Virus genome (UHGV): UHGV-0190812
DNA length: 18,962 nucleotides
Source: a virus
Direction: 5' to 3' (one strand)
The position numbers and the translations under genes are program-made. This document shows positions 5,618 to 15,693 of the stretch, piece after piece; position 1 is the first letter of the stretch; each line of letters starts with the position of its first letter. The notes under the pieces were generated by a model that searched no databases, had not been told where the DNA came from, and saw only the letters and a program-made list of their open reading frames with translations.

Positions 5618-6475
5618 TCAGCCTACTGTTCTAAAGATGAGAAGTGGTGTCATCCCATACGAATCACTTCCTCTACCAGCTTGTACCTTGACCATATCCA
5701 GGAAGGATTGTAATCCTGACTTGAGATCGTGTTCAGGGAAATCAGGGTTATTGATATTCTGATCTTGTACAGAATCTGGCAAGGCATCAATCAATCCAAT
5801 GACATGCCAGGTACCCGGTATGGTGCCACCATATTTTAAGGCTAAGTCATCAGGATTAATTGTTAAATATTCTTTATCAATAGACATCCACATCAGGTTG
5901 CCATTCTCATCAATAAAATCAACCTGGAGGATGTTGGGAACGATATTAATGAGTTTCTTAACTACACCAATGGTAAGCCCTGGAGATATCTCAATTTCAT
6001 CTGGGGTGAGTTTTCCTTTAAGCTTCGCTTTGGCTTTTGGGGGAAGGTTGACCGTGTTTAATTGTGCTTGGGCTATCTCACCAAAAATAGGCATAATTTT
6101 CTGAATAGTTGACACATCAAAAATGCGCATTTTTCCAACAGAATGAACAACTGAACCAAGATTCTCACCATTAAGTCCAGTTTTAATCATTCCTGCTTCA
6201 TCTAATTTATCGAGAAAATTAATTGGTAATGACCATGAAGCGTCGAAAGTTTTCTCTTGCGAATGTGTTAAGGTGTCGTCAGTCCCCACTTTTCCTTTAA
6301 GAATCTTGACGCTCAATTCAACGGATTTATTAGATTTATCTGTGTCAGAAGTAGTTTGTTTTACGCTCGTCACTACACCAGCATTGTGAAGCTGGGCTGT
6401 GAGGGAGCTAACGCGTACACGGTCTATGTAAAGAAAATCAAATAGTGAATCTGTGCTTTGTTGTTCGAGCTCCAT
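5618..6475 (-). CDS. hypothetical protein, 285 aa (304 aa if started at 6532); repressor-linked cargo, function unknown
   Basis: Long minus-strand ORF between the cI-like gene and pL. ATG at 6475 with AGAGAGGA about 8 nt upstream; alternative ATG at 6532. Appears AT-rich by eye relative to flanking modules. No motif I can assign (no kinase, nuclease, ATPase or TM signatures noted). Confidence 0.6.
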   Translation of the reverse strand: MELEQQSTDSLFDFLYIDRVRVSSLTAQLHNAGVVTSVKQTTSDTDKSNKSVELSVKILKGKVGTDDTLTHSQEKTFDASWSLPINFLDKLDEAGMIKTGLNGENLGSVVHSVGKMRIFDVSTIQKIMPIFGEIAQAQLNTVNLPPKAKAKLKGKLTPDEIEISPGLTIGVVKKLINIVPNILQVDFIDENGNLMWMSIDKEYLTINPDDLALKYGGTIPGTWHVIGLIDALPDSVQDQNINNPDFPEHDLKSGLQSFLDMVKVQAGRGSDSYGMTPLLIFRTVG

Positions 6476-6617
6476 TTTGCCAATCCTCTCTAAATTTTTC
6501 TTTTTCCTCGCGAATTCTTTTTTGCTTTTCATCTATCTCATCGAAAAGTTGAATGAGTTCATCCACACCATGTGAAGGCGTCTCTGATTTCACTTTCTTC
6601 AAAATTTTCTTGAACAT
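6438..6617 (-). CDS. small charged hypothetical protein (59 aa), possible partner of the downstream 285-aa protein
   Basis: First ATG of the 6438-6695 ORF (MFKKILKKVKSETPSHGVDELIQLFDEIDEKQKRIREEKEKFREDWQNGARTTKHRFTI). Overlaps the 5' end of the next gene in another frame. No convincing Shine-Dalgarno. Confidence 0.3.
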   Translation of the reverse strand: MFKKILKKVKSETPSHGVDELIQLFDEIDEKQKRIREEKEKFREDWQNGARTTKHRFTI

Positions 6618-6766: not shown

Positions 6767-7459
6767 TTACCCATGCTTCCTGTATGTCTGCGGCATGCTC
6801 CCAATAACCTTACCGAAGATGAACACCCGGTTCATCTCGTCTTTCTCGATCGGGTCCCACGGTGAGTAGCTCTTGTTATCAGAGATAACCAGCAGCTTAT
6901 CCTTCATCATTTGCAGGCGCTTTACATGGGCTGTGTCGTCGTACAGAAACGCATAGATACCATCACCGTCGAAAGATTTAACCGTGATATCAACGAACAG
7001 CAGATCACCTGGTTCGATCGTTCCTGACATGCTGTCACCACGCACGTTAATGATGCGGATATTTTCCGCCTTCCTGCCATCGAACATGTGACGAGCATCG
7101 TCAAACGAGTACTCAACCGAGCGTAGAACTTCTACAAACTCACGGTTGATTACACCCGGCCCGGCACTGACTTCTATATCAAGAACGTCAATCTTGAAGT
7201 ATTTTGAATGGCTGACAGCAGGCTTCCCTGATTGTTGACCGTCATTTCTCATCGGGCCTATGCCTGATGAGAGCCATTCTGTTCGAACACCCAATGCATT
7301 AGCTATTTCAACAATTTTTGTTGAGCCGCGCGCGTTGCCGCTTGTCAGTCTCCAGATTGTGGGTTGAGCTACGCCAGACGCCTTTGCAAGAGCGCCTTGA
7401 GACATTCCAGATTGTTCCATCGCTAGGTTTAAGCGATCAGCAAGAGTTTCTTTTTTCAT
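6767..7459 (-). CDS. cI: CI-like prophage repressor (HTH N-domain plus S24 LexA-like autopeptidase C-domain)
   Basis: HTH segment (MSQGALAKASGVAQPTIWRLTSG); Ala-Gly cleavage site (EVSAGPG), Ser in GDSMSG and Lys in HVKRL consistent with RecA-stimulated self-cleavage. ATG at 7459 sits right after a pRM-like promoter, giving a near-leaderless mRNA as in lambda; the track start at 7495 is a TTG inside the promoter. Confidence 0.85.
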   Translation of the reverse strand: MKKETLADRLNLAMEQSGMSQGALAKASGVAQPTIWRLTSGNARGSTKIVEIANALGVRTEWLSSGIGPMRNDGQQSGKPAVSHSKYFKIDVLDIEVSAGPGVINREFVEVLRSVEYSFDDARHMFDGRKAENIRIINVRGDSMSGTIEPGDLLFVDITVKSFDGDGIYAFLYDDTAHVKRLQMMKDKLLVISDNKSYSPWDPIEKDEMNRVFIFGKVIGSMPQTYRKHG

Positions 7460-7461
7460 AA

Positions 7462-7560
7462 GTTTTAATTTATACGCTTGCGTATTGATGGTCAAAACAC
7501 GTTTTGCTATTGCTTGAATTAATACGCATTGCTATTATTCATTCATTGCAATACCAATAG
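7462..7560. promoter_or_regulatory. OR region: divergent pRM-like and pR-like promoters with operator repeats
   Basis: pR (+): TTGCTT 7510-7515, 17-nt spacer, TATTAT 7533-7538. pRM (-): TTGACC (rc of 7490-7495), 16-nt spacer, ATAAAT (rc of 7468-7473). TTGCTATT motif at 7504-7511 and 7529-7536 overlaps pR -35/-10; a third palindromic site CATTGCAATA near 7544-7553. Confidence 0.5.
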
Positions 7561-7821: not shown

Positions 7822-8367
7822 ATGACTATGCAACCACTTACATACCAACAGACTAGCGGATTTAGCCCGACTGCGGTGATAAATCGTTCTCAAACAAAAC
7901 AGGCGCCAGGCCACGAAAAAATCCGTGATGCCGTTCGCGCCTGGTCGGCTGCAGATAATCAGGATGTTGTTGCCGCACTCATTGTGAATGAGTATCGGGA
8001 GCAGGGCGGCGGCACCATCGATTTCCCTGATGATGTCAGCCGTGCACGCCAGAAGCTGTTCCGCTTCCTCGATAACAAATTCGATTCTGAAAAATACCGA
8101 AATAACGTGCGTGAACTGACCCCGGCAATTCTGGCGGTACTACCGCTGGAATATCGCGGCCACCTGGTTGAGCAGGATAGCTACATGGCTCGGCTGGCTG
8201 AAATGGAAAAGGAACTCAGTGAGGCAAAACAGGCTGTCATTCTCAACGCACCACGCCACCAGAAACTGAAGGAGATGAGTGAAGGCATTGTGTCGATGTT
8301 TCGTGTGGACCCGGATTTGGCTGGTCCACTGATGGCGATGGTCACCACCATGCTGGGGGCAATATGA
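7822..8367 (+). CDS. YdaT-family protein in the cII position (putative lysis-lysogeny regulator)
   Basis: 181-aa ORF between cro and O. EYREQGGG and PAILAVLPLEYRGHL segments resemble Rac YdaT as recalled from memory. Stop overlaps the next ORF (ATGA). Confidence 0.6.
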   Translation: MTMQPLTYQQTSGFSPTAVINRSQTKQAPGHEKIRDAVRAWSAADNQDVVAALIVNEYREQGGGTIDFPDDVSRARQKLFRFLDNKFDSEKYRNNVRELTPAILAVLPLEYRGHLVEQDSYMARLAEMEKELSEAKQAVILNAPRHQKLKEMSEGIVSMFRVDPDLAGPLMAMVTTMLGAI

Positions 8368-8453
8368 CAGGTTCGGAAATGGCGAAAGCCGGTCTGCGCG
8401 AACAGAACCGACTTTCAGGTGCAAATCGTAACACACTCATTGCGGGAGGAATT

Positions 8454-9383
8454 ATGGCAAACACTGCTGAGATATTCAATTTTCCAGTGCCGGATGTGGC
8501 ACAAAAGGAGCGGCGCGTGGCAGATCTCGACGATGGTTATACGCGCATTGCAAATGAGTTGCTGGAAGCTGTGATGCTGGCCGGATTAACACAGCACCAG
8601 CTTCTGGTCTTCCTGGCTGTCATGCGCAAAACATATGGCTTTAATAAAAGACTGGATTGGGTGAGCAACGAGCAACTTTCCGAATTGACCGGGATATTGC
8701 CGCACAAGTGTTCTGCTGCAAAAAGCGTTCTGGTAAAGCGTGGGATTCTTATTCAGAGCGGGCGGAATATCGGCATTAATAATGTGGTCAGTGAATGGTC
8801 AACATTACCCGAATCAGGTAAGAAAAATAAAGTTTACCTGAAAGAGGTAAATTTACCTGAATCAGGTAAGAAAAGTTTACCCAAATCAGGTAAAGGCGTT
8901 TACCCGAATCAGGTAAACACAAAAGACAAACTAACAAAAGACAATATAAAACCTTTTTCGTCCGAGAATTCTGGCGAATCCTCTGACCAACCAGAAAACG
9001 ATCTTCCTGTGGTGAAACCGGATGCTGCAATTCAGAGCGGCAGCAAGTGGGGGACAGCAGAAGACCTGACCGCCGCAGAGTGGATGTTTGACATGGTGAA
9101 GACCATCGCGCCATCAGCCAGAAAACCGAATTTTGCAGGGTGGGCTAACGATATCCGCCTGATGCGTGAACGTGACGGACGTAACCACCGCGACATGTGC
9201 GTGCTGTTCCGCTGGGCATGCCAGGACAACTTCTGGTCCGGTAACGTGCTAAGTCCGGCCAAACTCCGCGACAAGTGGACCCAGCTCGAAATCAACCGAA
9301 ACAAGCAACAGGCTGGCGTGACAGCCGGCAAACCAAAACTCGACCTGACGAACACTGACTGGATTTACGGGGTGGAGCTATGA
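8454..9383 (+). CDS. O: replication initiator O (lambda O family) containing the origin iterons
   Basis: From the ATG at 8454 (GGGAGGA Shine-Dalgarno) the N-terminus MANTAEIFNFP...RVADLDDGYTRIANELLEA...LLVFLAVMRKTYGFNK parallels lambda O (MTNTAKILNF...NVADLDDGYARL...VLLAILRKTYGWNK). An in-frame upstream start at 8364 is also possible. Confidence 0.85.
   Translation: MANTAEIFNFPVPDVAQKERRVADLDDGYTRIANELLEAVMLAGLTQHQLLVFLAVMRKTYGFNKRLDWVSNEQLSELTGILPHKCSAAKSVLVKRGILIQSGRNIGINNVVSEWSTLPESGKKNKVYLKEVNLPESGKKSLPKSGKGVYPNQVNTKDKLTKDNIKPFSSENSGESSDQPENDLPVVKPDAAIQSGSKWGTAEDLTAAEWMFDMVKTIAPSARKPNFAGWANDIRLMRERDGRNHRDMCVLFRWACQDNFWSGNVLSPAKLRDKWTQLEINRNKQQAGVTAGKPKLDLTNTDWIYGVEL
8805..8917. repeat. 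ori iterons: four to five ~18-bp internally palindromic repeats TTACC(C/T)GAATCAGGTAA(G/A) followed by an A/T-rich stretch
   Basis: Copies at about 8805, 8853, 8877 and 8900 (23-24 bp or multiples apart), plus a degenerate copy at about 8834. The A/T-rich run 8917-8955 lies immediately downstream. Same architecture as the lambda origin inside O. Confidence 0.7.
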
Positions 9384-10081
9384 AAAACATCGCCGCACAG
9401 ATGGTTAACTTTGACTGTGAGCAGATGCGCCGGATCGCCAACAACATGCCGGAACAGTACGACGAAAAGCCACAGGTACAGCAGGTAGCGCAGATCATCA
9501 ACGGTGTGTTCAGCCAGTTACTGGCAACTTTCCCGGCGAGCCTGGCTAACCGTGACCAGAATGAACTGAACGAAATCCGCCGCCAGTGGGTTCTGGCTTT
9601 CCGGGAAAACGGGATCACCACAATGGAACAGGTTAACGCTGGAATGCGCGTAGCCCGTCGGCAGAATCGACCATTCCTGCCATCACCCGGGCAGTTTGTC
9701 GCCTGGTGCCGGGAAGAAGCATCTGTTAACGCCGGGCTGCCAAACGTCAGCGAGCTGGTTGATATGGTTTACGAGTATTGCCGGAAGCGTGGCCTGTATC
9801 CGGATGCAGAGTCTTATCCGTGGAAATCGAACGCGCATTACTGGTTGGTTACCAACTTGTACCAGAACATGCGGGCCAATGCGCTGACTGACGCGGAATT
9901 ACGGCGCAAGGCTGCCGATGAACTGACCTGTATGACAGCGCGAATTAACCGTGGTGAGACGATACCTGAACCAGTAAAACAACTTCCTGTTATGGGCGGT
10001 AGACCTCTAAATCGTGCACAGGCTCTGGCGAAGATCGCAGAAATCAAAGCTAAGTTTGGGCTGAAAGGAGCAAGTGTATGA
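9380..10081 (+). CDS. P: replication protein P (DnaB helicase loader)
   Basis: 233-aa translation is near-identical to lambda P as recalled (MKNIAAQMVNFD.EQMRRIANNMPEQYDEKPQVQQVAQIINGVFSQLLATFPASLANRDQNE...). Confidence 0.95.
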   Translation: MKNIAAQMVNFDCEQMRRIANNMPEQYDEKPQVQQVAQIINGVFSQLLATFPASLANRDQNELNEIRRQWVLAFRENGITTMEQVNAGMRVARRQNRPFLPSPGQFVAWCREEASVNAGLPNVSELVDMVYEYCRKRGLYPDAESYPWKSNAHYWLVTNLYQNMRANALTDAELRRKAADELTCMTARINRGETIPEPVKQLPVMGGRPLNRAQALAKIAEIKAKFGLKGASV

Positions 10082-10262: not shown

Positions 10263-10288
10263 GGCGGTGTTAGCACCGCCTTTAATTA
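10263..10288. terminator. hairpin between P and the 115-aa gene (possible weak terminator)
   Basis: GGCGGTG-TTAG-CACCGCC perfect 7-bp stem followed on the plus strand by TTTAATT; weak U-tract. Confidence 0.3.
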
Positions 10289-10633
10289 AAGCTCAGAAAG
10301 CTGTAATAATATTTTTTCTGGAGTGGTTTCGTTGGAAATGCTAAATAATACAGCACCTTTGACTGATTCATCTCTCATTTCAATTTCACATGAATTATGG
10401 TTGTATGAGATTGCATAATTTTTTAATGTTCTTTCGCTTTGCCACCACACCATATTTGCAAGACTTCCGTTATACGTTCTTATCTCGATTGATCCGGGCA
10501 GGGCTTTCCAGATAACACCTCCTAGCAATGTAAGAGCGGCTGCACCAACATTTTTTGCATGATGGTTAGAACGTTCCATTACCCCTTCAGCATAACGATG
10601 AAGAATCTCTATGTCAGTCGCTTTGATAGTCAT
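10286..10633 (-). CDS. hypothetical protein, 115 aa; reverse-oriented AT-rich moron in the ren slot
   Basis: ORF opposite in orientation to the flanking replication and nin genes, with visibly lower GC and an AT-rich upstream region (10634-10860) containing an extended -10-like TGCTATATT on the minus strand. No family recognised. Confidence 0.55.
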   Translation of the reverse strand: MTIKATDIEILHRYAEGVMERSNHHAKNVGAAALTLLGGVIWKALPGSIEIRTYNGSLANMVWWQSERTLKNYAISYNHNSCEIEMRDESVKGAVLFSISNETTPEKILLQLSEL

Positions 10634-10960: not shown

Positions 10961-11111
10961 TCGGTGTTTTTGGCAGCCAAGAACAGGGAGTCTCTGTTTG
11001 TCTGGCGGCTAAAGGTGATATGGAAATCGTGATGTCTTAGCCTAAAGTAGTTGCAACAGTTGGAGCGATTATGGTGGTAGTAGTGATCATCGCGCCCCCC
11101 ATATGCAAGGG

Positions 11112-11224
11112 TTGACGACATTATTTATCCGGCGCTATATTCTGTGCGTTGCCGCAAAATCGGCACACGGGATTGGCGTCCCGGAATACTACTCAACGCA
11201 TACCGCGTTAAGCGGTTTTTTTAT
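11112..11224 (+). promoter_or_regulatory. promoter plus ~75-nt structured leader ending in an intrinsic terminator (attenuator or small RNA) upstream of the Bro-N gene
   Basis: TTGACG (11112-11117), 18-nt spacer, TATATT (11136-11141). Downstream stem-loops TGCCG/CGGCA and CGGGA/TCCCG, then ACCGC-GTTAA-GCGGT followed by T(7) at about 11202-11222. Confidence 0.35.
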
Positions 11225-11378
11225 GCGCTAAGCACGGCTACGCCCAAATTATGGTGGGCTGTGTGAGGGCTTCTTCGGGAGCGCCGGGTTTGAGTAGCCG
11301 GTTACGCCAACCTTGCACAGTTCACCACCAGTCGATTGGCGTCGTTGGTGGTGATGGTTAACCTGATGAGGTGATACT

Positions 11379-11939
11379 ATGACTACTCAATTAGCATTCC
11401 ACAAAACGACGTTTACCCCAATTTGCCACAATAACAGAATTTGGCTTACTGCCACTGAAGTTGGTTTAGCTCTGGAATATGCGGACGATAAAGCAGTTCA
11501 GCGCATTTACTCTCGTCACTCAGATGAATTTACAGATATGATGACAAGGGTGGTCAAAGTGACCACCCCTCGTGGAATGCAGGAGTCTCGAGTATTTAGC
11601 CTTCGCGGAGCCCATTTGATCGCCATGTTTGCACGAACTCCTGTAGCCAAAGAGTTCCGCCGCTGGGTTCTGGATATTCTCGATCGAGAAGTTCAACAAT
11701 CCCCAATCATAAAACAATTCACTGATAACGAACTTTGCACACTTGCTTGGTTATGGCGAGCAGGGGATGTGATGTTAACCGCCTGCCAGAATGTTACTCC
11801 ACTTCTTCAGGTTGCGGAGCACCGCGAAGCTGGTCGCTTTACTTCTATCGGGCAAGAATATCCCCAGATACTACATAAGGCGCGCGAAATCCTTGCCAGA
11901 GAAACGGCACCATGTAAAACTCCAGCCTTGGCAGGATAA
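11379..11939 (+). CDS. Bro-N domain protein (putative antirepressor-like)
   Basis: 186-aa ORF. N-terminal FHKTTFTPICHNNRIWLTATEVGLALEY...IYSRHSDEF...VFSLRGAHLIAMFARTPVAKEFRRWVLDIL fits the Bro-N fold motif pattern of phage antirepressors. GAGGTGA Shine-Dalgarno. Confidence 0.7.
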   Translation: MTTQLAFHKTTFTPICHNNRIWLTATEVGLALEYADDKAVQRIYSRHSDEFTDMMTRVVKVTTPRGMQESRVFSLRGAHLIAMFARTPVAKEFRRWVLDILDREVQQSPIIKQFTDNELCTLAWLWRAGDVMLTACQNVTPLLQVAEHREAGRFTSIGQEYPQILHKAREILARETAPCKTPALAG

Positions 11940-14748: not shown

Positions 14749-14878
14749 GTCTTATATGGCAGAACGTCTTCGCCACCGCAGGATGCGCCTGCGCTTATAT
14801 CGTTTCCCCGGTTCTGTTTTGACCGATTACCGGATACTGAAGAATTACGCCAAAACACTGAAAGGAGCTGCCGCATGA
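14741..14878 (+). CDS. ylcG: YlcG-like small protein
   Basis: 45-aa ORF below the track cut-off ([45 protein letters not shown]). Overlaps the rusA stop and the Q start (ATGA). Matches DLP12 YlcG as recalled. Confidence 0.5.
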
Positions 14879-15564
14879 ATACCCAATATTTACAGTATGT
14901 CCGCGAGCAACTCATTGTGGCTACTGCTGATTTGAGCGGAGCAACGAAAGGCCAGCTTGAAGCCTGGCTGGAGCATGCACAATTTGATACTGGTACATAT
15001 AAACGAAAGAAGCCGCGCATTCTGGATGAGGTAACGGGCAAGATGATTACGCTGGATAATCCGCCGATTTCCGGTAAGCAGTCGTACGCAAAAGGTTCAT
15101 CCATTGCACTGGTCAGCCAGGTTGAGTTCTCAACATCTTCATGGCGCCGCGCGGTTCTGTCTCTCGAAGAACATCAGAAAGCGTGGTTGCTGTGGAGTTA
15201 CAGTGAAAACATCAGCTTTGAATACCAGGTGGCGATCACCCAGTGGGCGTGGTCTGAATTCAGGGGGTATCTCGGCGCGAAGAGGGTGGCAGGCAAGACC
15301 ATGGAGCGCCTGAAGAAGCTGATATGGCTGGCAGCGCAGGATGTCAAAGCAGGGTTGGTCGGGAAAGATGCCTACGAATACCAGAAGCTGGCGGAACTGG
15401 TTGGCGTGGCGAAATCCACCTGGACAGAGACATACCTGCCTCACTGGTTGGCAATGCGTAGCTGCTTTATGCGACTCGATAGCGGTGCGCTTATCTCAGT
15501 AACGCGATCACGTTCACAACAAAAGGCGACAAGTTCGCACGTAAGTCTTGCAAAACCGAACTGA
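14875..15564 (+). CDS. late-gene antiterminator Q (QuuD-like)
   Basis: 229-aa ORF directly after rusA-ylcG, upstream of a candidate late promoter and the lysis cassette. Assignment by synteny and length; no motif independently verified. Confidence 0.6.
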   Translation: MNTQYLQYVREQLIVATADLSGATKGQLEAWLEHAQFDTGTYKRKKPRILDEVTGKMITLDNPPISGKQSYAKGSSIALVSQVEFSTSSWRRAVLSLEEHQKAWLLWSYSENISFEYQVAITQWAWSEFRGYLGAKRVAGKTMERLKKLIWLAAQDVKAGLVGKDAYEYQKLAELVGVAKSTWTETYLPHWLAMRSCFMRLDSGALISVTRSRSQQKATSSHVSLAKPN

Positions 15565-15693
15565 AACGCTTATATTTCATGTAAATCTGATATCGTCGCC
15601 ATAGCTTTGTTGGTCGACAAAGAATTAACAGCCTCGCCATCGTGCGGGGCTTTTACTTTACATGCTGTGAACACAAAAAAAGTAACTTTTATG

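Follow-up and report, generated by a model that had tools for sequence, protein, structure and literature searches.

The window analysed here is a stretch of 18,962 nucleotides (nt) of the virus genome UHGV-0190812, and corresponds to a lambdoid prophage of Escherichia coli. Ahead of a gene for a Bro-N antirepressor it carries a promoter, a short structured RNA and an intrinsic terminator, which a sequence-only reading had interpreted as either a discrete small RNA (sRNA) or a transcription attenuator. Judged by its sequence, this arrangement is the front end of a previously described phage control unit, in which an sRNA of the IsrK family is followed by a C4 antisense RNA and of which Salmonella Gifsy-1 and phage P1 provide examples. 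The unit is already documented in Rfam (RF01394, RF01695, RF03163), as IsrK of Gifsy-1, as C4 of P1 and P7, by Weinberg et al. 2010 and in APSE phages; ours is a rediscovery, which adds no new kind of element. The cassette is composed of the following features.

11112-11141, plus strand: sigma-70-type promoter, with a -35 box TTGACG (11112-11117), an 18-nt spacer and a -10 box TATATT (11136-11141), from a promoter scan
11148-11222, plus strand: IsrK-family sRNA of about 75 nt, consisting of an a1b1 element and an intrinsic terminator, from Rfam and folding
11150-11165, plus strand: IsrK hairpin 1 (UGCCG / CAAAAU / CGGCA), from the minimum free energy (MFE) fold and the Rfam alignment
11168-11183, plus strand: IsrK hairpin 2, the loop of which presents a1, from the MFE fold and the Rfam alignment
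11173-11179, plus strand: a1, TTGGCGT, in the loop of IsrK hairpin 2
11189-11196, plus strand: b1, CTACTCAA, in the single-stranded IsrK spacer and complementary to the b' loop of C4
11202-11222, plus strand: intrinsic terminator, ACCGC-GTTAA-GCGGT plus T7, from a sequence scan
11223-11252, plus strand: spacer, by analogy with P1 the putative 5' leader of the C4 precursor
11247-11332, plus strand: C4-type antisense RNA of 86 nt, from Rfam and folding
11251-11361, plus strand: 36-codon open reading frame (ORF) at the position of Gifsy-1 orf45, overlapping C4, from the ORF list
11290-11297, plus strand: b', TTGAGTAG, in the loop of C4 hairpin 2
11304-11310, plus strand: a', ACGCCAA, in the single-stranded C4 junction
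11322-11329, plus strand: TCACCACC, the 3' strand of the C4 closing stem, from folding
11336-11342, plus strand: a2, TTGGCGT, 7 nt past the 3' arm of C4
11347-11354, plus strand: GGTGGTGA, alternative partner of the C4 3' arm, from folding and relatives
11368-11381, plus strand: Shine-Dalgarno (SD) sequence GAGGTG (11368-11373) and ATG (11379-11381) of the antirepressor gene, from the sequence and the ORF list
11379-11939, plus strand: antirepressor gene, 186 amino acids, with Bro-N and P22AR_C domains (Pfam PF02498, PF10548)
11383-11390, plus strand: b2, CTACTCAA, in codons 2-4 of the antirepressor gene

For comparison, a pattern scan of viral contigs yielded 120 further loci, giving 137 modules, 111 of them unique and with 70 distinct C4 sequences, and all co-variation counts below refer to a MAFFT alignment of these 70 distinct modules. 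An Rfam scan of the window at curated thresholds, one of the checks proposed by the sequence-only reading, returned three matches, namely isrK, C4 antisense RNA and isrJ. When the cassette was searched under relaxed conditions (401 nt, E up to 1), isrK, C4 and c4-a1b1 were recovered and nothing else; no riboswitch or other Rfam cis-regulatory leader family matched the cassette region even at E up to 1, and a scan for transfer RNA (tRNA) and tmRNA found none. These matches identify the 75-nt leader with its terminator as an IsrK-family sRNA, and place a complete C4 in the 157 nt beyond it.

The isrK match (RF01394) is full-length at 11150-11222 and scores 60.7 bits against a cut-off of 50, and the RNA has the parts typical of the family: a pair of hairpins at the 5' end, then a single-stranded spacer, then an intrinsic terminator. 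Hairpin 1 shows compensatory changes at four of its five pairs, and the stem of hairpin 2 is paired in 100% of cases. Of 78 distinct upstream segments, 76 have a hairpin followed by a U-run at the place of the terminator, between b1 and C4; this was counted by a per-sequence scan, as the terminator columns (helix 4) are misaligned by MAFFT and appear only 40% paired. The terminator is probably leaky, by analogy with its Gifsy-1 orthologue, for which read-through was shown experimentally (PMC4825925). The promoter, TTGACG-18-TATATT, agrees with the consensus at 10 of 12 positions, which alone is no better than chance, since a scan of 2.5 kb gave 6 promoter-like sites versus 6.6 expected. Its position is conserved, with the best -10 ending 107-112 nt before C4 in 73 of 83 distinct upstream segments, and 51 of the 83 score at least 9/12, compared with 10/81 in a coding control. 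Transcription is predicted to start near G11148, because the 5' end of Gifsy-1 IsrK falls 7 nt after its -10. Thus, the promoter, the two short stem-loops (seen in both the MFE fold and the Rfam alignment), the leader of 75 nt and the terminator all lie where the sequence-only reading had put them, and the distance from terminator to Bro-N start, given there as about 155 nt, is 157 nt from the terminator end to the ATG at 11379. In two distant modules, L102 and L136, a1 and b1 are found about 40 nt further upstream, and an extra hairpin (GUGCGGCUUCGGCACA) between the terminator T-run and C4 gives a variant spacer architecture.

The C4 match (RF01695) is likewise full-length, at 11247-11332, with 72.7 bits against a cut-off of 45. 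Its MFE fold (-41.4 kcal/mol, z = -4.2) has a closing stem that encloses two hairpins; this stem is paired in 100% of cases, 8 of its pairs covary, and so do all five pairs of hairpin 1. On the alignment, the intramolecular structure is 92.7% paired, with changes on both sides at 23 pairs, a level reached by none of 500 shuffles and well above the 36-48% of slid controls. Hartmann and colleagues are said to have found in 1995 that P1 C4 is excised from its precursor by RNase P. In the window we would place the cut between U11252 and G11253, as it corresponds to the annotated 5' end of mature P1 C4 (position 2344 of L017), so that the predicted mature RNA would extend over 11253-11329 (77 nt). 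In this form it has a shape resembling an RNase P substrate, with a 7-bp acceptor-like stem followed by ACCA. The read-through RNA of Gifsy-1 is processed to species of ~180 nt and ~80 nt (PMC4825925).

C4 carries two words, a' and b', which are complementary to a2 and b2 at the downstream translation start, and these two sites are duplicated as a1 and b1 upstream on the same transcript. With 0.28 occurrences expected per strand, CTACTCAA is confined on the plus strand of the 19-kb window to b1 and b2, and its complement is found at b' alone. The four short duplexes between C4 words and target sites contribute about -10.3 kcal/mol each; within the translation start region the b' loop has a unique best partner at 11383-11390 (-10.4 kcal/mol), and the C4 core pairs with IsrK at -33.2 kcal/mol, which was reached in 1 of 500 shuffles. 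RNAcofold gave no net gain (ddG 0.0) for mature C4 with either IsrK or the translation start region; this is uninformative, because loop-loop contacts are pseudoknot-like and lie outside its model, and short-duplex energies were used instead. A weaker look-alike partner of the a' junction at 11343-11351, which includes a G-U pair, was set aside, as co-variation supports 11336-11342.

The module set comprises 58 a'/b' combinations built from 21 a' and 45 b' types, and throughout it the words change together. The a1-a' pairing is preserved in 99% of cases with compensatory changes at 6 of 7 pairs, and the a2-a' pairs are 86-91% paired with compensatory changes at 5 of 7. The column-based count for b1-b' is only 48.6%, as b' loops differ in length and fall out of register under MAFFT, and an alignment-free comparison of cognate with non-cognate C4 was used in its place. 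The longest complementary word averaged 6.7 nt in cognate versus 3.8 nt in non-cognate combinations for a1, 6.8 versus 4.3 nt for b1, 7.0 versus 3.6 nt for a2, and 8.2 versus 4.4 nt for b2. Taken together, the co-variation and the cognate word lengths indicate that the pairing scheme is under selection at all three places. The location of b2 is a local peculiarity: in most relatives it lies at -20 to -10, overlapping the SD sequence, while in a subtype consisting of the window, L104, L109, L062, L063 and L091 it is at +4 to +11, within the coding sequence.

Some viral contigs carry the isrK-C4-ant cassette in tandem, as in L048 (9637-11211), where the cassettes are 656 nt apart, and also in L088, L068, L112 and L124. 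There are two or three cassettes per contig, each with a different a'/b' combination, which suggests modular duplication with diversified RNA specificity.

The sequence-only reading had also noted further GC-rich pairing, CACCACC...GGTGGTG, between the terminator and the ribosome-binding site. Both words are present (11323-11329 and 11347-11353) and can pair, but they do not form a separate structure: they lie within TCACCACC and GGTGGTGA, and join the 3' arm of C4 to a conserved alternative partner. Folding, another of the proposed checks, recovered this pairing along with both IsrK hairpins. The resulting hairpin, which would place a2 in its loop, is incompatible with the fold of mature C4. 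It is 97% paired among the relatives with one covarying pair (A-U to G-C, 3 sequences), although this is a weak test, because the collection pattern fixed the 3' arm and limited variation by design. P1 has an equivalent around its own a2, CCTGCCACC / GGTAGCAGG. The alternative helix may serve as a folding or processing switch, or as a way to present a2. As a separate observation, the MFE fold predicts a small hairpin at 11354-11380, directly between the a2 hairpin and b2, that takes in the SD sequence (AGGU) together with the A and U of the AUG and would bring the two C4 target sites close to each other (z = -2.35 for an 81-nt segment).

The gene under putative C4 control is an antirepressor gene, as is characteristic of C4 systems; its product matches PHROG 245, "anti-repressor Ant", with E = 3e-49. 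There is no upstream ORF of the P1-specific icd type here, and the start codon that follows the target sites is that of the antirepressor itself. We do not treat icd as defining the Rfam C4 family, as most family members examined are without it. The 36-codon frame at 11251-11361 was considered as a candidate gene and rejected: it stops after 3-17 codons in 14 of the 70 modules, and in L063, which shares the a'/b' type of the window, it stops at codon 9 (MVGCVRAS*). It is probably not a conserved gene. Read from an AUG that is conserved in the 5' arm of C4, the ORF is 27-45 codons long in about 20 modules and is fused in frame with ant in about half. The earlier statement that no ORF explains the region therefore holds, the more so as the stretch under two further short ORFs that overlap IsrK (11103-11231 and 11144-11266) evolves by compensatory pair changes. 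In SfV-like phages (cdtI gp44, mEp460 gp41, ST64B sb41, and Ayreon, where it is called "immunity region") an annotated coding sequence passes through isrK and C4 (621-1769 of L012, 575-1726 of L014, 592-1749 of L015 and 621-1457 of L010). These calls are probably over-extended, because the frame that begins at the conserved AUG continues without a stop into the antirepressor gene.

Comparison with known systems shows that the closest match is the Gifsy-1 locus (Hershko-Shalev et al. 2016, PMC4825925). There, isrK (79 bits) is followed by C4 (69 bits) in the same order and at equal spacing (L001), the promoter with its -10 is conserved, the terminator is one for which read-through was demonstrated, and an antirepressor gene lies directly downstream. 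The a1/a' words are identical (TTGGCGT / ACGCCAA), and the prophage also has an isrJ and a 67%-identical Q (AntQ). Over the RNA region the two share ~68% DNA identity. They differ in b specificity, CTACTCAA in the window and TCACCG in Gifsy-1, and in the place of b2, which covers codons 2-4 in the former and -19 to -13, over the SD sequence, in the latter. The small ORF of the window, with its 36 codons, terminates 17 nt short of the ATG, whereas that of Gifsy-1 has 45 codons and an AUGA overlap; the antirepressors, Bro-N/P22AR_C and ORF6N respectively, have marginal similarity (E = 0.004). Finally, the cassette is found after P in the nin region of the window and between Q and isrJ in Gifsy-1.

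The immI region of P1 and P7 (Citron & Schuster 1990) shares with the window the order of its elements, a C4 of the same family, and a mature C4 of 77 nt, annotated in P1 and predicted here. The P1 GenBank record (NC_005856) annotates promoter, a1, b1, c4, a2, b2, icd and ant in that order, and marks a2 and b2, in the icd-ant messenger RNA (mRNA), as sites targeted by C4 for repression of icd ant translation. In both, the a sites are placed in an upstream hairpin loop and immediately 3' of C4, the b sites are single-stranded, a terminator-like hairpin with a T-run separates b1 from c4, an alternative hairpin links the C4 3' arm to sequence around a2, and the regulated gene is an antirepressor gene. 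P1 scores 68.8 bits for C4, 51 for c4-a1b1 and 35 for isrK. To our knowledge, no discrete a1b1 sRNA has been described for P1. In that phage the translational block by C4 leads to Rho-dependent polarity on ant. Unlike the window, in which C4 would target the antirepressor gene itself, P1 has icd between the target sites and ant, with b2 over the icd SD sequence. The P1 promoter carries a C1 operator; no comparable operator was seen in the window, where no search aimed at one was made. Among the 16 phage loci fetched, isrK is followed by C4 after 22-27 nt in all 16, a Bro-N, Ant or ORF6N antirepressor-type gene lies downstream wherever the record carries annotation, and the c4-a1b1 cut-off is passed by 7 of them, as it is by P1. 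Since the fetched relatives and P1 share it, the IsrK-like front end is a general feature of the C4 family rather than a Salmonella novelty.

Three other systems resemble the cassette in part. Phage P22 immI (sar - ant) also uses an antisense RNA to hold down an antirepressor in a lambdoid phage, and the window protein has the P22AR C-terminal domain. The sar RNA is an antisense transcript encoded in cis with full complementarity, and Mnt and Arc serve there as protein regulators; C4 differs in being tRNA-like, in deriving from the same strand and in having two short words as targets. The CI RNA of P4 (seqA/seqB/seqC) is, like C4, a processed tRNA-like immunity RNA with complementary sites up- and downstream on one transcript. 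It acts by premature transcription termination of replication genes, not by antirepressor control, and the authors of the Gifsy-1 study regard IsrK as a structural homologue of P4 SeqA (both in PMC4825925). In the APSE phages of Hamiltonella, which belong to another phage type and host, sRNAs of the c4 and isrK families are both reported, and sequences matching a' and b' were noted in non-coding DNA ahead of a neighbouring Bro-N gene; the authors do not connect isrK mechanistically with a1/b1 (Rouil et al. 2020, PMC7313666). Our literature searches for C4-like RNAs in Stx or lambdoid phages gave this paper only.

We conclude, with a probability of roughly 80%, that the cassette is a P1-immI-type RNA switch guarding the prophage antirepressor, of the same kind as isrK-STnc1160/orf45-anrP of Gifsy-1 and predicted here from sequence. 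Transcription would be initiated near 11148 by the sigma-70 promoter, and most transcripts would end at the intrinsic terminator, yielding the 75-nt IsrK with a1 in a hairpin loop and b1 single-stranded. Read-through RNA would carry the tRNA-like C4, from which RNase P may excise the 77-nt RNA before G11253, as in P1. Pairing of a' and b' with a2 and b2 would block initiation at the SD sequence and AUG, so that no antirepressor is made and lysogeny is stable. IsrK, which bears both words, may compete for C4 as a decoy; it should be able to titrate C4, because the two words are at matched spacing and flanked by further complementarity. If IsrK came to exceed free C4, the antirepressor would be translated and would inactivate the CI-like repressor (6767-7495), giving RecA-independent induction. 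The sequence analysis establishes that both RNAs belong to their families, how they fold, and that the pairing words co-vary in three places; the processing by RNase P, the block through a b2 within the coding region and the decoy role are inferred for this locus.

Much of what is known of Gifsy-1 is in line with such a scheme. The short IsrK and a longer read-through mRNA, which is transcribed but remains untranslated, both come from its isrK promoter; with IsrK provided in trans, translation of anrP rises more than 100-fold and transcription 8-fold; and deletion of the promoter abolishes stationary-phase phage release (PMC4825925). By homology, both options of the sequence-only reading apply, as a small RNA is combined with a leaky terminator that precedes a controlled gene; the reading was only partly right, having missed the central regulator, the controlling antisense RNA C4. 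The mutants IsrK-G28A and IsrK-G31A are inactive in trans, while C159U and C162U derepress (PMC4825925). When the Gifsy-1 numbering is mapped onto the sequence, G28 and G31 fall in a1, and C159 and C162 in a', identifying "helix b-I" of the original authors as the a1-a' pairing. The loss of activity in trans fits a decoy that needs to bind a'. Compensatory double mutants in a1 and a' stay derepressed, with 224 and 327 units versus 4 (PMC4825925), as would be expected if a' must match a2 as well.

Several points weigh against this interpretation. The c4-a1b1 model (RF03163, "a1, b1 targets of C4 antisense RNA", a motif from Weinberg et al. 2010) scores 40.6 bits at 11135-11187 (E = 5e-9), overlapping the 5' half of isrK and falling below its cut-off of 46.7, although the a1 and b1 words themselves are present. 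With b2 off the SD sequence, the block has to be assumed to act through codons 2-4. The collection pattern fixed both C4 arms, so that the diversity of the arms and of the alternative helix is under-sampled. In Gifsy-1, the G28A and G31A mutations of a1 in cis raise basal expression, which a pure decoy model does not predict; extra STnc1160 (orf45) strengthened IsrK-mediated growth arrest; and there is mutational and Western evidence for orf45 translation, coupled to anrP (PMC4825925). In view of these poorly fitting Gifsy-1 points, a1-a' pairing in cis may also help repression or C4 maturation, and coupling to an upstream ORF may contribute in Gifsy-1.

The last observations belong to the model published for Gifsy-1, which we consider unlikely as the main mechanism in the window. 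According to it, IsrK in cis pairs downstream and hides the ribosome-binding site of the small ORF, IsrK in trans opens it, and translation of the ORF feeds ribosomes into the antirepressor gene, so that the C4-like region matters as mRNA structure and small ORF and not as a separate antisense RNA. It is backed by direct genetics and in-vitro binding (PMC4825925), an ORF is found at the corresponding place in the window, and the MFE fold of 11148-11400 pairs the middle of IsrK with the a' region of C4 in cis. That ORF, as described above, is not conserved, even in L063, ends ahead of the antirepressor ATG without the AUGA overlap of Gifsy-1, and would have its AUG divided by the predicted RNase P cut. 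Neither the co-variation of a2 and b2 with a' and b' nor the persistent derepression of the compensatory double mutants is explained by this model. It and the C4 switch can both hold.

We regard as very doubtful a scenario in which the IsrK-like sRNA mainly regulates mRNAs of the host core genome in trans and its adjacency to the antirepressor is incidental. The Rfam label of the isrK family, "Hfq binding RNA", and other prophage sRNAs with host targets (reviewed in PMC12197685) would speak for it. Gifsy-1 IsrK, however, acts on its own locus and independently of Hfq (PMC4825925), and variation within IsrK follows the cognate C4 and not any host sequence. Host targets, for which no search was made, may still be an additional field of action. 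Hardly credible is a purely cis-acting attenuator or antitermination target at which Q or another phage factor overrides the terminator and the short RNA is a by-product, since, for all that promoter, hairpins and terminator are arranged ahead of a gene and downstream expression in Gifsy-1 requires read-through, a by-product gives no reason for a1/b1 complementarity to C4 to be kept across 58 specificity types, IsrK acts in trans in Gifsy-1 (PMC4825925), the region matches no Rfam riboswitch or leader family, and the Q-type leader of this prophage is isrJ.

A broader view may be formulated, which we hold to be evenly balanced between right and wrong. IsrK-type sRNAs would be released a1b1 decoys of P1-type C4 switches, and the "orf45" region of Gifsy-1 would be primarily a C4. 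Throughout the family, decoy sRNA, antisense RNA and mRNA would form a three-RNA circuit fed by one promoter and set by terminator leakiness and relative RNA stability. The words, with at least 21 a' and 45 b' types, freely recombined and present in up to three tandem cassettes, would be private address codes preventing cross-triggering of co-resident prophages, and in the subtype of the window the second address would have moved from the SD sequence to codons 2-4. The comparative data connect three topics kept separate in the literature searched, namely Gifsy-1 IsrK, the c4-a1b1 motif and P1 C4, and point to a simple logic of decoy, antisense RNA and target, in which many different specificities are available. 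Such a logic is relevant to RecA-independent induction of lambdoid prophages, including Stx phages with the same cassette. There is also value for annotation, as near-identical deposited phage and E. coli records call the stretch hypothetical proteins, or the antirepressor gene alone.

The cassette region is 99.3-99.7% identical to that of Escherichia phage IdasGreatGrand, and is present at 90% identity or more in 308 of 5,426 complete E. coli genomes; in strains S21 and H14 the identity is 99.3%. Distant BLAST matches place the stretch in 266 phage records, of which Stx-converting phages are the majority; further carriers are Gifsy-1, phiV10, SfV-like phages, and Klebsiella, Yersinia and Actinobacillus phages. 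In the window it is embedded in the following genes.

6767-7495, minus strand: CI-like S24 repressor
after the CI-like repressor and before the YdaT-domain ORF: Cro-like gene
after the Cro-like gene and before O: YdaT-domain ORF
8364-9383: O gene
9380-10081: P gene
between P and the IsrK/C4 cassette, minus strand: moron
downstream of the IsrK/C4 cassette and ahead of Q: NinB and RusA genes
14875-15564: Q antiterminator gene
15580-15653: isrJ, 64.9 bits in Rfam, starting 16 nt past the Q stop

The sequence-only reading had proposed antitermination by Q or other factors at the cassette, which is not supported, as the target of Q in this prophage appears to be the isrJ leader directly after the Q gene. 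We likewise discarded the cassette as a Q-dependent late leader of the lambda 6S type, as it is situated 3.5 kb upstream of Q and the 6S-like position is filled by isrJ. In the stretch 15548-15653, a promoter-like site of isrJ, TTGCAA-17-TATATT, overlaps the Q stop codon, and the RNA has its own terminator at 15630-15651; both promoter and RNA are conserved with Gifsy-1. As the parts are arranged like those of the lambda pR'-6S-tR' late leader, IsrJ looks like a substrate for Q antitermination, not a free-standing virulence sRNA.

Two moron-like genes of the early region lie on the minus strand, one at 10286-10633, between P and the isrK cassette, for a VCH_CASS14 integron-cassette-family protein, and one at 5618-6532, adjoining the repressor, for a DUF6414 protein. 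The ORF at 7822-8367 occupies the cII position and has a YdaT_toxin domain (102 bits). In two Stx-phage relatives, L006 (1753-1836) and L007 (1788-1871), the first antirepressor gene has an RNA of the sRNA-Xcc1 family (RF02221, 73-76 bits) on its downstream side; the one in L006 is directly ahead of a second antirepressor gene, and would represent another, different RNA element at that place.

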